Of a stretch of 64,000 nucleotides of DNA, positions 41,035 to 52,679 are shown one piece after another. The DNA is from Bacillales bacterium. GTDB lineage: Bacteria > Bacillota > Bacilli > CAJFEE01. Both the position numbers and the translations under genes were made by a program. The stretch's first letter is position 1, and each line of letters starts with the position of its first letter. The notes under the pieces are model-generated. The model had not been told where the DNA came from, ran no database searches, and saw nothing but the letters and a program-made list of their open reading frames with translations. Location: assembly GCA_029256085.1 (NCBI GenBank), contig JAQSYP010000002.1, positions 343,342 through 407,341 on the forward strand, written 5' to 3'.

Positions 41035-44000
41035 TTACTTCCAAATAAAGCCGTCGCCCTTAATTAGATCCAAACCATTTAGATTTCCATCTCTGAAATG
41101 AGTTTTTTGATTACTTGCATCTAAACCGTTTCTATAATCAATTGAATAGCCACCAGAAAAAACATACGGTGCAACACCAGCTGGTCTTGTATTTAGTAAT
41201 TTTGATGATGTTTTCCAATCTGCTTTAAGCATCCATGGATTTGTCGCATTTCCTCCCCTGTAACCTGCTGTTGAAACATAATCCGGGTCATCTGCTTTAT
41301 GTTCTTCCCCGTGACAGGTTAGATAGCACTTTCTATTTGACCTACTATATTGTCTAGATCCTCCTACTATATTAGTAGGGAAGCCAATTTTATGGTCAAC
41401 AGAAACGCCATCTCTTTGTTCAGATTCAATCGCGCCATGTGGCCTGTGACATGTTTTACATGGGGTTGATCTTCCTTTAACTTTAAAATTATGAAGATTT
41501 CCAAAATCAGAGGTATTAGCGCCACTACTAAATAATTTGTTTGAGTCATGACAGTCAAAACATAACGCATAGTTTGCTTCACTATAACTAATATTTCCAG
41601 TTGTCACTATATATTTCATTCTTAGACCGTTCGGATATTGTGATCCGTGTGGATTGTGGCACACTTGGCAATCAAACTGTGAATGTCCACGCTTCTCATT
41701 AACATCTTTTCCATTGAATTCAAGAGTCGATGTAGCTGAATTATCTGTGTATTGGAATTCTAATGTAGTTTTATGACATGCGTAACAAAACTCTTTACCA
41801 TTATTAGATATTGCTACTTCTTCAGTAGTAATTGCATTTTTAATTTTTTCTCTTAATAGTGGTTTTATATTTGAACCATGTTTTTCATGACAAGATATAC
41901 ATTTTACTTGTGAGTCACCTGCTATGCCAGATCCTCCGAATACACTGTACATTTTGCTTGAGTTATGCCCTTTATTTAATGCTGGTACATTAGTTTCATG
42001 ATTTCCTCTATAATCGGTTAAATAGTTTGATTGATTAGAGGTAGGAATACTACTGAGTGAAGGACCTTGTAAATAACCATATGATCCTGTATTAGCATTT
42101 CCATGACAGTTCCAACAGAAACCATTTCCGCTCTCATCTTTTTCACTATTTCGATTGAAACTTTGCAACATTCCAGGTGAACTTGGAATTGGAGTACCCT
42201 TGTCTAAATCTTTACCTTTATCATGAGGCATGTGGCAATCGATGCAAGTGATTCTAAATTTTGAAGCCGATTCATCAGTATTAGAATATATCGGATGGTG
42301 ACTAACTTTCTCTGAAGGGTATGCCCCCCCTAATTCGTCTTTAATGTTAAAAGTACTTCCTAAACCATCATGGCATTGTAGACACAATTGATAAATTTCA
42401 ATTTCGTTTAGTAGTTCAGGCTTTTTACCTTTGTGTGTAGAATGACAGTTTTTACACATCTCTGTCTCTTCTGCAAAATCTCCATGTGGTTTTGAGAATT
42501 TAGTAGCACCTGTTGTAAATGTATATGACATCGCTTCAGAGACTGCAACATTCGATGTATTCTTTATTGTATTTGCAATGCTAACAGTATAAGTTCTTTC
42601 AATATTTAAAAGAGAATCTGGTTTAAATAAAATCTCATTTGGATTCTTTAAAGATAACGTACCAGATACTAATTGATTAGTAGTATTATCTTTAAGAGTA
42701 ACTGCTCCAGAAATTGTTGATAACAATATTGCCTCATCAAACCTAACTAATATTTCTGTGCCTGTTCCTACCCCAACCGAATCAGGTGCAGGCTTAAAAA
42801 ATTTATATTCTGGGGGTGAGTTATCTACATCTGTTTTCTGAGAGACTGTGTTACTATACCCTGATTTATTTCCTGAAGTATCAACAGCTACCATCTTAAA
42901 CTCATAGTTTGTATCAGGATTAAGTTCTTCAATTGTGCCTGTTGTAAAAACATCGCTAAACGGAACCTTTTTCACAAGAAGATTATTTGCTAATACATCT
43001 ATTTCATATCTATCTAAACCCGTATTATCTGTCGAGCCTGTCCAACTTAAAGAAACAGTATTTGTTGTGAAGTCAGTTACTGTCAAATTTGCAGGCGAAG
43101 TCGGGGGTATTGAATCAGGCTCAGGCGTATTTACAGTAATTATTTCTGTAGGTGCAGAATGATATTCACTATCGTTCACAGTAACAATTCTAAAGAAATA
43201 TTTACTATTTGGTGATATTACACCATTAACTCTGAAATTCGTGAAAGTAGTCTCACCGACTTGTTGATATAAACTACCATCTTGACTCATGTAAACAATA
43301 TATTTGCTAATATTTGTTCCACCTGCTGGTAGCCAATTTAGATCTACAGAGGTTGGCGTAATTGCGCCTACGTTCACTTCAGTTACTTTCTCAGGTGTCG
43401 AAATTGGTGTTATACCTGGTACACTAATAGGTAATGAAGTGACGGTTGGGCTTGTTTGATTTCTATCATCAATTGCTGTTACCTTGTATGAATAGGTAGT
43501 ACCTGGAACAATACTTGGATCGATAAAACTATTTGTCTCAGACGTACCGATCAGTTCAGTTAAAGTTCCATTAACTCTTTCAATTTTAAATCCTGTTAAA
43601 TATGTGCTATTATAGGCATCCCACTGTAATTCTACCTTTGTATTATTTGAAATTAGGTTTAATATTAATCCTGATGGTGCCTCTGTTAGTGTTGGTACAT
43701 TTATAGGCTTGGTGATAGAAAGATTACTAATTTTTGTAACAATAGTTGATGAGTCACTATCATCATTCTGCATATCATTGCAAACCCTAAGATAATACAT
43801 ACCTTTAGAATAGGCAGTACCATTTTTTAGTTCAAAATTTACATTTAAATTAGAAACAGTTTTAGTAGTATTAGTATAAACGTTTATCCAATTTGTCCCA
43901 TCGGTTGTATAGGATGCTGTATTAGAGTGTATTATTTTTGAAGAATCTGCATTATTAAATGATTTATTTAATGTTAATGAAACCTTTATAGGTCCTCCAT

Positions 44001-51900: not shown

Positions 51901-52679
51901 CTATCTAATTCTAATATCGCATTTTCAGTAATATTTTGCCCCTGGGCTGTTAGAATAGAGGGCTTTCCAACAACTAACTTAGAACTGTTTGAAGAGAATC
52001 CTGTTGGGAATACACCATACTTAGTTACTGTTTGGTCACCAACTATCGAAATTGTTGAAACATTTACATTTGTATATGATTCTGACACATTATTATAATA
52101 ATCAACTGCTTTGACAGTATAAACATACGAACTTCCCATAGATACACCGTTTGAATCACGATATGATGTAGTTGTGCTTACTCCAACCTTTATTCCATCT
52201 CTATAAATTTCATAAACTCTTACGTCATTTGATAATGATGATACCCATGATAAATCAACGTAATTAGAACCTGGTTTGACTTTTATATTTTTATTTGTTG
52301 GAAGTACTGGAGCAACATTATCTGATGTATAAAATGCTGTTGCAGGACTATAGTAGCTAACTCCATCTTTTATTGTAACAACCTCATACTGATATAATTT
52401 CAAATTTTCAATGGTTGTATCAGTGAAACTTGTATCTGCAGTTGATCCGACACGCTCTATACTTTCTTTTGTAGTTCTATAAATTTCATAACCCGTTGCA
52501 CCACTGACACTAGACCACTGAATTTCTACTCCAGAGGCCGTTTGTGTAATACTACTTATAGTTGTACTTTCACCTTGCACTTTATTTATGTATGGAATAA
52601 CTAATGAAGTCATTATTAATAAAACTATAAAAATATTTATTAATTTATAATTTATTAATTTATAATTTATTGATTTCAT
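48945..52679 (-). CDS. Giant secreted FN3/Ig multiheme cytochrome, paralog 3
   Basis: CNNCH, CIQCH, CVSCH, CWSCH, CSICH, CYQCH, CQVCH, CYDCH, CKRCH, CNPSCH. Confidence 0.9.
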   Translation of the reverse strand: MKSINYKLINYKLINIFIVLLIMTSLVIPYINKVQGESTTISSITQTASGVEIQWSSVSGATGYEIYRTTKESIERVGSTADTSFTDTTIENLKLYQYEVVTIKDGVSYYSPATAFYTSDNVAPVLPTNKNIKVKPGSNYVDLSWVSSLSNDVRVYEIYRDGIKVGVSTTTSYRDSNGVSMGSSYVYTVKAVDYYNNVSESYTNVNVSTISIVGDQTVTKYGVFPTGFSSNSSKLVVGKPSILTAQGQNITENAILELDSAYAFEILENETNASNNVKINFDYSFNWGNKNNNNSNGQAYNLGIEYKAIGSSEWTTMATISNTATTNDVQFSDDINLSSGRYQLRFTMSVKTSNETSGNWAELEVDNLKVYVNNFAPSVPGNPEISLGATKKYLNLSWTASSDINLIGYRIYRDNTVIASTVNNSFTDSSFELKDSDAEYTYKIEAIDDRGLTAQTVGIPITVPSYEDDVMPPQAPGGGLVDKPTKISMNLTWEASPSPDIQKYIIFKNDGTKFSVIGVTTFTNFKFNKDDSYPAPYDFRVIAVDKDGEFSGATQIFSGSFSEADSTSPTKPTDFKATNITSSSVDLAWKLSTDNEGVERYEVEAEINGSGTWHLVNTIAHPKNSVSIKELLQNTNYKFRITAIDTSGNKSEVPHQVVNVKTLVDTSPPEVAFFKPSNQSIEVGRATNITAKFTDRMNVTTINSDSFFITQKGTSVKLAATYSTNQTAFILNPTVNLDANTEYEVTITTSAKNMAEMGLIEEFKWSFTTGEALYNKPHGSFADETGMCNNCHSGHEGKSTNLLTQDKILDLCIQCHDGTGSIYNVKGDFGNPAEKTSHHPVLSETINETDEQGNKFTMSCVSCHEPHNRGMDLDTGLSLTSEAKLLWSFNKGVKDIASDIYTVKPEASGSGNKFCWSCHGREGSPTYSYGYLDDGTFNKTVDYIGDHETNFPKNNKGHNSSKMDHYKSSHYIEGSEHKDSSPTNIKCSICHEKHASDIKPLLRGNISFENTTSSTATITNNGKEFCYQCHENAIDYTYSDWGSYGTAFNDYDGKEVNERSGHSQFDCQVCHNTHGSENPNYLRLNYAVGQSSSNTDVAAAICYDCHSKGNLTSVTTGPTITVNSETKSMHSYHFTKTPTATCKRCHRVHGAKDSENNGNLNHKIGFPVTNPGTYNRSENTATCNPSCHGDQPVANLRPITSPTDEQIKRSLHTNWETSSKILSDRRSLNLLQYRDSNNNGLLYK

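Follow-up and report, generated by a model that had tools for sequence, protein, structure and literature searches.

To our knowledge, the passage of electrons through the thick wall of Gram-positive bacteria is known from a few thermophilic Clostridia-type models alone. Gram-positive surface multiheme cytochromes have been proposed to carry electrons across or beyond this wall, and Thermincola OcwA, the CwcA/PdcA/ImdcA chain, and OmhA/SmhA-C of Carboxydothermus ferrireducens are secreted Bacillota multihemes that have no porin partner and are encoded together with further multihemes (PMC7829351, main text). Here we describe three tandem genes at positions 41035-52679 of a 64,000-nucleotide stretch of DNA from a Gram-positive soil bacterium of the Bacillales (GTDB CAJFEE01; GenBank assembly GCA_029256085.1, contig JAQSYP010000002.1, positions 343,342 to 407,341), which was analysed as a whole and which we refer to as the window. 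By their motifs and family model, the products are multiheme c-type cytochromes with ten putatively attached hemes; like the systems above, they are predicted to be exported and are encoded beside further multihemes, with no porin gene in the cytochrome module of the window. In contrast to the Thermincola and Carboxydothermus cytochromes, they add to the heme domain a rod of about 770 residues, built of FN3 units, an Ig-like domain and a further domain of about 170 residues, and the genomes in which their family occurs belong to the class of Effusibacillus and Neobacillus rather than to Thermincola or Carboxydothermus. In the main text of PMC7829351, none of the terms FN3, fibronectin, Ig-like, SLH and NHL appears, nor does the stem adhesi-. 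On balance, we favour the view that these stalked proteins are secreted, wall-associated or extracellular decahemes forming the outermost parts of a Gram-positive extracellular electron transfer (EET) module, in which the ~170-residue domain between the second and third FN3 units (FN3_2 and FN3_3), labelled VAR in the following, would act as the recognition module.

The three genes are consecutive open reading frames of 1264, 1247 and 1244 codons on the minus strand, with ends exactly where a preliminary description of this DNA had placed them. Paralog 1 (P0001; 41035..44829) has 1264 residues from a GTG start and a long variant of the C-terminal tail, paralog 2 (P0002; 44979..48722) has 1247 residues and the VAR type common to other genera, and paralog 3 (P0003; 48945..52679) has 1244 residues. 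By inspection, all three N-termini look like Sec-type signal peptides, with a K-rich n-region, a hydrophobic core and V-x-[SG] ahead of the predicted cleavage site; in paralog 1, only the GTG start provides such an n-region and core, which the form starting at an internal ATG (P0122, 1246 residues) lacks. In sequence scans of the three proteins we found no lipobox Cys (no Cys at all in the first 40 residues), no LPXTG motif (LP.T[GASN] occurs nowhere) and no second or C-terminal hydrophobic segment, and in a Pfam scan no SLH, LysM, CWB or other wall-binding domain, so that the stalked proteins differ from sortase-anchored LPXTG and from SLH, LysM and CWB surface proteins in lacking their anchoring signals or domains. 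Recent gene conversion among the paralogs was considered and dropped, the best shared DNA blocks being just 63-76% identical.

In all three paralogs, the modules follow each other in the order FN3_1, FN3_2, VAR, FN3_3, FN3_4, FN3_5, Big_5 and heme domain. Pfam and profile comparison thus bear out the succession of signal peptide, two FN3 units, a domain of about 165 residues, three FN3 units, an Ig-like domain and a heme domain that had been read from the sequence beforehand. Matches to fn3 (PF00041) lie above the cut-off, with E-values of 6e-21 to 3e-28, and the five units match one another in 9 of 10 pairs with a probability of 85-99% in hhalign profile-profile comparison; Big_5 (PF13205) is covered over the full model (1-105), with E-values of 6e-14 to 5e-20 and 53.1-72.7 bits against a cut-off of 23.6. 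In paralog 2, FN3_1 and FN3_2 occupy 48108..48626 (residues 33-205; Pfam and hhalign), FN3_3 to FN3_5 46725..47591 (residues 378-666), and the Ig-like Big_5 domain 46395..46724 (residues 667-776; E 4.6e-20, 72.7 bits), all on the minus strand. The linkers between modules are short and contain Pro. FN3 and Ig modules measure about 3.5-4 nm each, from which we estimate a rod length of about 25-30 nm; such a rod could serve as a wall-spanning spacer.

All heme motifs of the three paralogs are found within the last ~470 residues. There, each protein has nine CXXCH motifs and one CX3CH, as do 11 of the 11 core family members examined; the ten motifs of the preliminary description are therefore all heme motifs, the tenth, however, being CX3CH rather than CXXCH. 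In paralogs 2 and 3, all 20 Cys residues belong to heme motifs, and paralog 1 has two more, Cys260 and Cys350, inside VAR. As read from the translations, every second motif is extended to CXXCHxxH, which yields five doubled pairs, in agreement with matches to Paired_CXXCH_1 (PF09699) far above the cut-off (E 1e-21 to 1e-24; 75.6-86.2 bits against 20.6). The model of the MtrC/MtrF pentaheme domain II/IV (PF22113) is likewise matched, with 40.6-42.7 bits against a cut-off of 30. As 12 non-motif His and one Met are invariant in a ten-member family alignment, a sixth ligand would be available for all ten hemes, which would make them hemes of the electron-transfer rather than the catalytic type. 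Together with the conserved C-terminal tail, the heme domain spans 44982..46394 in paralog 2 (residues 777-1247), and the equivalent parts lie at 41038-42507 in paralog 1 and 48948-50369 in paralog 3, all on the minus strand. Two near-identical blocks previously noticed in the heme domains of paralogs 2 and 3, KGHNSSKMDHYKSSHYI and GFPVTNPGTYNR, are indeed identical in both, and the heme domains of the paralogs also differ by insertions. The tail of 50-85 residues after the last heme motif (44982-45137 in paralog 2) is itself conserved in all family members, with the pattern L..NW.T.S.LL..R ... [FY]RD ... G..[YW]K and an invariable final K; it is long in paralog 1, the Neobacillus protein and P0010 and short in paralogs 2 and 3, and it could be a docking or maturation signal. 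A 'DxNxDG'-like loop near the C-terminus, considered as a calcium or docking motif, was dropped, since only 7 of 11 members fit it when the C-termini are read by eye.

How does this heme domain relate to characterized cytochromes? A four-sequence profile of it, searched against the PDB at E<=10, retrieved two chains alone, 6r2q_A (E 3.8e-4), which, in spite of its listed molecule name, we take to be MtrA from the MtrCAB complex, and 7tfs_A (E 4.4e-4), labelled merely 'Cytochrome c' in the database and presumably the OmcE filament subunit. The former, weak similarity, the ten hemes and the PF22113 score above cut-off constitute a likeness to MtrA and to MtrC, OmcA and MtrF of Shewanella. MtrC, OmcA and MtrF, however, have an alternating beta-barrel/pentaheme four-domain layout and a porin partner, whereas the stalked proteins, which come from a Gram-positive host, have no lipoprotein signal, no non-heme domain within the heme region and no porin context. 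The match to 7tfs_A is borderline but in register over about 170 positions (63-232 of the heme domain to 24-219 of the chain), with shared CxxCHxPH and PxLR-type blocks, and is reminiscent of the OmcE/OmcS-type filament cytochromes of Geobacter; unlike the stalked decahemes, this chain has four hemes and no appended domains. Neither the whole protein nor the heme-domain profile at E<=10 matched any solved structure of the Thermincola/Carboxydothermus group in the PDB copy searched, which presumably contains the solved structure of OcwA. As stand-alone relatives of the heme domain, 17 proteins were found at E<=1e-5 among 3170 candidates, the best being 31% identical and none functionally named.

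It is on the heme domain, too, that a purely enzymatic function has to be judged. That the decahemes are reductases or oxidases of soluble substrates, such as nitrogen, sulfur or metalloid oxyanions, which the rod merely tethers outside the membrane, seems highly improbable to us. NCBIfam does yield sub-threshold, weak similarity to NrfB-type and ExtN/ExtO-type cytochromes, and the Thermincola surface cytochrome OcwA reportedly also reduces soluble substrates. However, these scores are far below the cut-offs, no reductase family model being reached, the stalked proteins contain no CXXCK or other catalytic-heme motif, as all ten motifs end in His, and the 12 additional His and one Met can fill all distal positions.

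The domain that sets the family apart is VAR, which on the minus strand occupies 43690..44220 in paralog 1 (residues 204-380), 47580..48113 in paralog 2 (residues 204-381) and 51546..52064 in paralog 3 (residues 206-378), borders that are within about 15 bases of those first proposed. It measures 173-178 residues in the three paralogs and 163-181 across family members, and the sparse motifs by which it had been recognized are real: the W, the G.Y.(L)R and the N of (D/S)N(L/V) are invariant in 10 of 10 aligned members. By sequence profile, VAR is a distinct domain and not FN3-like, as in hhalign it reaches no more than 8% with the FN3 and Big_5 profiles of these proteins, compared with a probability of 85-99% for FN3 against FN3; the possibility that it is just another plain FN3 spacer is thereby ruled out at the profile level. 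FNIII-A_GpJ is matched below threshold by 2 of 5 VAR sequences (E 2.5e-4 and 1.6e-3; Pfam), and the repeated weak matches of the C-terminal third to PKD and Big repeats are a generic beta-sandwich signal and no more. A crude propensity scan and inspection by eye give no helix signal, but about 11-12 hydrophobic blocks that look like strands, too many for a single FN3 unit. The Cys pair of paralog 1 could form a disulfide. Paired Cys are unique to the type-1 VAR of paralog 1 and its near-ortholog P0008, and a gene of the DsbB family lies nearby at 36194-36628.

Which fold could this be? In size (about 170 residues), all-beta character and number of strand-like blocks, VAR resembles the jelly rolls of MAM domains, cleaved adhesins (gingipain hemagglutinin-type) and carbohydrate-binding modules (CBMs), but no Pfam model of these families matches it, so that its membership among them is that of a candidate. 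Its N-terminal 'E/D-x-F..W' and C-terminal 'G.Y.LRF...VDN(L/V).V' blocks further resemble the strands with which jelly rolls of the MAM, cleaved-adhesin and CBM4/9 type begin and end. A language-model feature search of the protein Atlas, run on residues 215-385 of the stored homologue P0006, gave unnamed clusters of about 160-210 residues as the nearest (0.91-0.92), followed among named families by Cleaved_Adhesin (0.90, 0.88 and 0.85), DUF5017 (0.89), CBM_4_9 (0.86), MAM (0.86) and RGI_lyase (0.85), although scores near 0.9 occur by chance 4-10 times in 100. A profile search found no sequence relative of VAR in the PDB, its two matches being at chance level (E about 1). Probabilities in hhalign did not exceed 0.4% for VAR against single sequences of CBM_4_9, CBM_6 and Cleaved_Adhesin, nor in 12 control comparisons of FN3 or Big_5 with these three targets and MAM; a control of MAM against Cleaved_Adhesin gave only 0.2%, so that the test has little power. 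The proposed jelly-roll likeness stands in part: weak leads agree with such a fold (Atlas 0.86-0.90; 24% against MAM in hhalign), and no family model matches. Our best guess for VAR is a sandwich of the jelly-roll adhesin/CBM type, akin to MAM or cleaved adhesins.

Among the three paralogs, VAR is the least conserved of all modules, with identities of 22, 15 and 35%, compared with 30-56% for the FN3 units, 32-49% for Big_5 and 53, 48 and 66% for the heme domain. A comparable contrast is seen between paralog 1 and P0008, where 925 of 984 positions (94%) are identical outside residues 212-472 and 140 of 255 (55%) inside (Fisher p 6e-47); this low-identity tract comprises VAR (49%) and continues into FN3_3 (67%). 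The VAR of P0008, in which Cys260 and Cys350 are kept, is still closest to that of paralog 1, at 49% versus 14-21% to all other VAR domains. The notion that VAR diverges more than the FN3 units holds among the paralogs and for P0001/P0008, and fails both for P0003, P0004 and P0005 and for paralog 2 in comparison with other genera. Ratios of dN to dS among the paralogs are uninterpretable, as dS is saturated or undefined (pS 0.58-0.79), with dN being highest in VAR. A scan of contigs for ortholog DNA yielded that of Neobacillus alone, one metagenome scan yielded nothing, and another gave five loci (L013-L017) with FN3-only matches of 29-31%, which were not used.

For the history of the triplication, we calculated trees of the heme domain, the rod from FN3_3 to Big_5, and VAR. 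The three lineages of the window form one clade in the heme (98/97) and rod (98/95) trees, both of which are midpoint-rooted only; in the VAR tree, the stems of paralogs 1 and 3 are very long, with 2.69 and 1.68 changes per column, and paralog 2 falls without resolution among other genera. We read this as two lineage-specific duplications, after which paralog 2 would have kept the ancestral VAR and paralogs 1 and 3 would have gained strongly derived types, the VAR of paralog 1 possibly having gone through a further, recent replacement or burst.

The architecture is rare. In a word-indexed search of 5.8 billion proteins, 127 matches were obtained, of which 8 besides the query show the cytochrome-FN3-Big_5 architecture at a query coverage of at least 82%, among them proteins named from Effusibacillus lacus and Neobacillus sp. 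LXY-4; the remaining matches cover FN3 units only. A VAR profile, searched with HMMER against 1,835,955,588 representatives, gave 16 matches at E<=1e-3, which comprise family members and P0125 as specific matches and, beyond these, weak matches to multi-repeat PKD/Big_5 proteins. Judged by this profile, VAR is private to the stalked-cytochrome family among the 1.84 billion representatives. It occurs in one genome among 60 relatives and, leaving aside the organism's own genome (G000), in one among 400 genomes sampled from the class, in both cases the same genome (G012). P0125 is a more distant FN3-cytochrome fusion of 1419 residues that differs from the other VAR-bearing stalked cytochromes in having 15 CXXCH motifs and two VAR-like copies (residues 110-199 and 414-516), and these two copies mark VAR as a mobile module within stalked cytochromes. 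In the literature searched, we found no description of an FN3/VAR/Ig-stalked decaheme, although supplementary tables, e.g. Table S5 of PMC7829351, may list domain fusions. A fusion with some resemblance is Ga0056053_03448 of Geoalkalibacter ferrihydriticus, a large multiheme with N-terminal FN3 domains that its authors relate to cell adhesion; compared by description only, it differs in its 24 heme sites, its two FN3 domains and its Gram-negative host, and the text describing it mentions no VAR-like or Big_5 module (PMC12016550). Reports on metal reducers describe NHL proteins beside multiheme loci as well as an FN3-multiheme fusion (PMC12016550, PMC9769857, in the parts concerned with these loci). 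The stalked decahemes are thus a rare, undescribed architecture within the known kind of extracellular multiheme cytochromes.

The three genes are part of a larger module on the minus strand that, in the direction of transcription, consists of genes for a TPR protein, an NHL protein, a hexaheme, a second NHL protein, an FN3-only protein, the three stalked decahemes and a further hexaheme. The TPR protein (57457..58134; 225 residues) is membrane-anchored and CcmH/CycH-TPR-like, matching PF23914 with E 6e-10 and 39.6 bits, below the cut-off of 42, which its counterpart in G012 exceeds with 49.9 bits; it might be a dedicated apocytochrome chaperone of the CcmI type. The two NHL beta-propellers (56489..57445, 318 residues; 54059..54955, 298 residues) both have an N-terminal anchor, in the latter a membrane anchor. 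Between them is encoded a conserved, secreted hexaheme cytochrome (54959..56488; 509 residues), which is 42-46% identical to its counterparts in the Neobacillus sp. LXY-4 locus (L001) and the G012 locus (L018); across the three genomes, these hexahemes share 42-48%. The heme-less, secreted FN3-only protein (52849..54087; 412 residues) adjoins the stalked gene in G012 as well, where it is 32% identical. Downstream of the stalked genes follows the secreted hexaheme cyt616 (39001..40851; 616 residues), which has three paralogs elsewhere in the genome. G012 shows the order TPR, NHL, hexaheme, NHL, FN3-only and stalked decaheme, preceded by further multihemes, and in Neobacillus sp. LXY-4 the order is the same except that the FN3-only gene is missing; both genomes have one stalked gene, compared with three in the window. 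The gene module is thus conserved in three genomes of the class. A pattern scan places terminator-like hairpins after paralog 3 (48909..48939, minus strand), the FN3-only gene (52829-52855) and paralog 1 (41000-41030), and also after cyt616, and finds none after paralog 2; at this pattern level alone, there are 13 sites compared with 8.4 +/- 2.8 in shuffles. From these separate hairpins, transcription of all three paralogs together seems unlikely.

How, then, might such proteins work? We envisage that, after export and the attachment of ten hemes, non-covalent contacts retain them within the wall or outside it. The redox work would fall to the C-terminal domain (about 420 residues) with its ten covalent hemes in five doubled pairs, which would exchange electrons with the conserved hexahemes and a final acceptor, and the five FN3 units and the Ig-like unit would form a non-conducting rod that tethers the heme domain or sets its distance from the thick wall. 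The TPR protein, the two NHL propellers, the hexaheme and the FN3-only protein encoded upstream would supply maturation or docking and the electron feed. VAR, probably a jelly-roll sandwich, would give each paralog its own recognition specificity, the target being perhaps a mineral surface, a partner protein or a polymer of the matrix or the wall, so that after the two duplications one cell would possess three proteins of the same heme design and different recognition specificities.

The direction in which the rod points bears on what VAR could reach, since, with the N-terminal half next to the cell, VAR would come to lie in the inner zone of the wall and more likely bind the envelope or a partner. 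An alternative that we think unlikely takes this to its conclusion: FN3-FN3-VAR would be cell-proximal, VAR would bind peptidoglycan, teichoic acid, the NHL propellers or the hexahemes of the cell's own envelope, and the heme domain would reach the outer wall face, so that VAR would serve for retention or docking and would not be an adhesin directed at outside substrates. A cleavable-looking signal peptide without LPXTG, lipobox, SLH or a wall-binding Pfam domain calls for some non-covalent retention, the membrane-anchored NHL propellers and the FN3-only protein are conserved partners at hand, VAR is two modules from the N-terminus, and a terminal reductase domain would be expected outside. 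However, a single envelope ligand, or the 298-residue NHL protein as the single partner, is hard to reconcile with one cell having three VAR types of 15-35% mutual identity.

Several observations weigh against the view of the stalked proteins as outermost EET components with VAR for recognition. An FN3 rod cannot conduct, so that other cytochromes would have to span the wall if the heme domain is distal, and as judged by sequence search this domain has no close characterized relative, its best PDB matches being 6r2q_A, which we take to be MtrA, and 7tfs_A. As module 3 of 8, with two modules between it and the N-terminus, VAR lies inside the rod, an unusual place for an adhesin tip. No Pfam family is matched above cut-off in VAR, and none of MAM, Cleaved_Adhesin and CBM at E<=10 or E<=1 (in searches with 3 and 5 VAR sequences); the Cleaved_Adhesin model (PF07675) matches nothing in the organism's own genome. 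In the Atlas, only 2 of the 10 best named matches share a family or clan, which reads there as 'that family is probably wrong', and the hhalign match of VAR (11 sequences) to MAM (3 sequences) is in register over 65 columns (VAR 99-168 to MAM 93-158) but low, with a probability of 24% at E 8e-4. As for divergence, the P0008 pattern comes from one protein on a 6.2-kb metagenome contig, and recombination or a chimeric assembly could account for it. The orthologs P0003, P0004 and P0005 show no excess in VAR (77-90% identity, compared with 76-93% in FN3), nor does paralog 2 when compared with the Effusibacillus and Neobacillus proteins (31-39% in VAR, 29-45% in FN3); continuous diversifying selection on VAR is therefore not general.

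Another possibility is that VAR is an exposed structural module rather than a ligand-binding domain, which diverges fast under phage, predator or antibody-like pressure or under relaxed constraint, and that the paralogs differ mainly in expression or in heme redox tuning. The conserved VAR positions (W, G.Y.R, N and F) have the appearance of core residues, and a conserved polar patch is not evident, the tract of divergence between P0001 and P0008 extends into FN3_3, as a recombination tract would, the insertions distinguish the heme domains of the paralogs, and the separate terminator-like sites fit differential expression. Yet the size of VAR is constant in every family member, and the domain is present twice in P0125, which argues for a function; moreover, the FN3-level conservation of the paralog 2 VAR across genera, and the 77-90% retained by the close orthologs of paralog 3, point to purifying selection on each type. 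We thus regard this explanation as doubtful and retain a recognition role of VAR in the outer part of an EET module as the preferred reading.

Some further features of the locus and genome concern maturation and regulation. In G012, a radical SAM/SPASM gene lies directly 3' of the stalked decaheme gene (L018:14521-15654), a gene that the window and L001 do not have at this position. In the organism's own genome, Paired_CXXCH_1 is matched in eight frames, four of them cyt616-like. The paralogs of cyt616 are found at G000:C14:428339-428494, C14:431098-431253 and C3:18458-18613, in open frames of 777, 828 and 658 residues, and all four cyt616-type proteins (L006-L009) share a C-terminal KRY.NMS.CWGCH block. 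Three matches to Cytochrom_C_asm (E 1.5e-38 to 3e-23) include a CcmF-sized frame of 669 residues; the loci (L019-L021) are G000 C15:34472-35089, C15:39612-40124 and C4:222283-222870, with the 669-residue frame and one of 256 residues being 5 kb apart. With no match to ResB (PF05140) in this genome, the CcmF-sized frame hints at cytochrome c maturation by System I (Ccm), which is unusual for this class. Directly upstream of the cytochrome module, a ComK-family gene (58275-58745) and a divergent gene for a small, ECF-like sigma-70 region-2 protein (58956-59459) could regulate it. Farther away (60281-62727), a gene for an MBOAT membrane O-acyltransferase (467 residues) overlaps a gene for a protein of 348 residues without a Pfam match, a pair that might modify an envelope polymer.

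What would follow for the biology of these bacteria? The homologues named from Effusibacillus lacus and Neobacillus sp. LXY-4 indicate that cultured carriers appear to exist. Given the evolutionary pattern, VAR is the obvious place to look for specificity. Tentatively, the stalked proteins can be pictured as addressable conduits, with a constant decaheme output and an address provided by an exchangeable, family-private jelly roll, of which one small genome would encode three specificities and which would be swapped, together with the adjacent FN3 unit, as a cassette between close strains. If this is true, Gram-positive bacteria could direct electrons to different minerals, polymers or partner cells through the choice of the paralog expressed. 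The stalked family, in joining a ten-heme domain to an adhesion-type rod and a private variable domain, and with NHL propellers, a hexaheme and a CcmI-like TPR protein as constant neighbours, would represent a compact and conserved alternative, in a different class, to the few models of electron passage through the Gram-positive wall. Its triplication in this genome is a natural experiment, in which the heme design is the same and VAR differs, and which could show whether the substrate specificity of EET can be encoded in a non-heme module.

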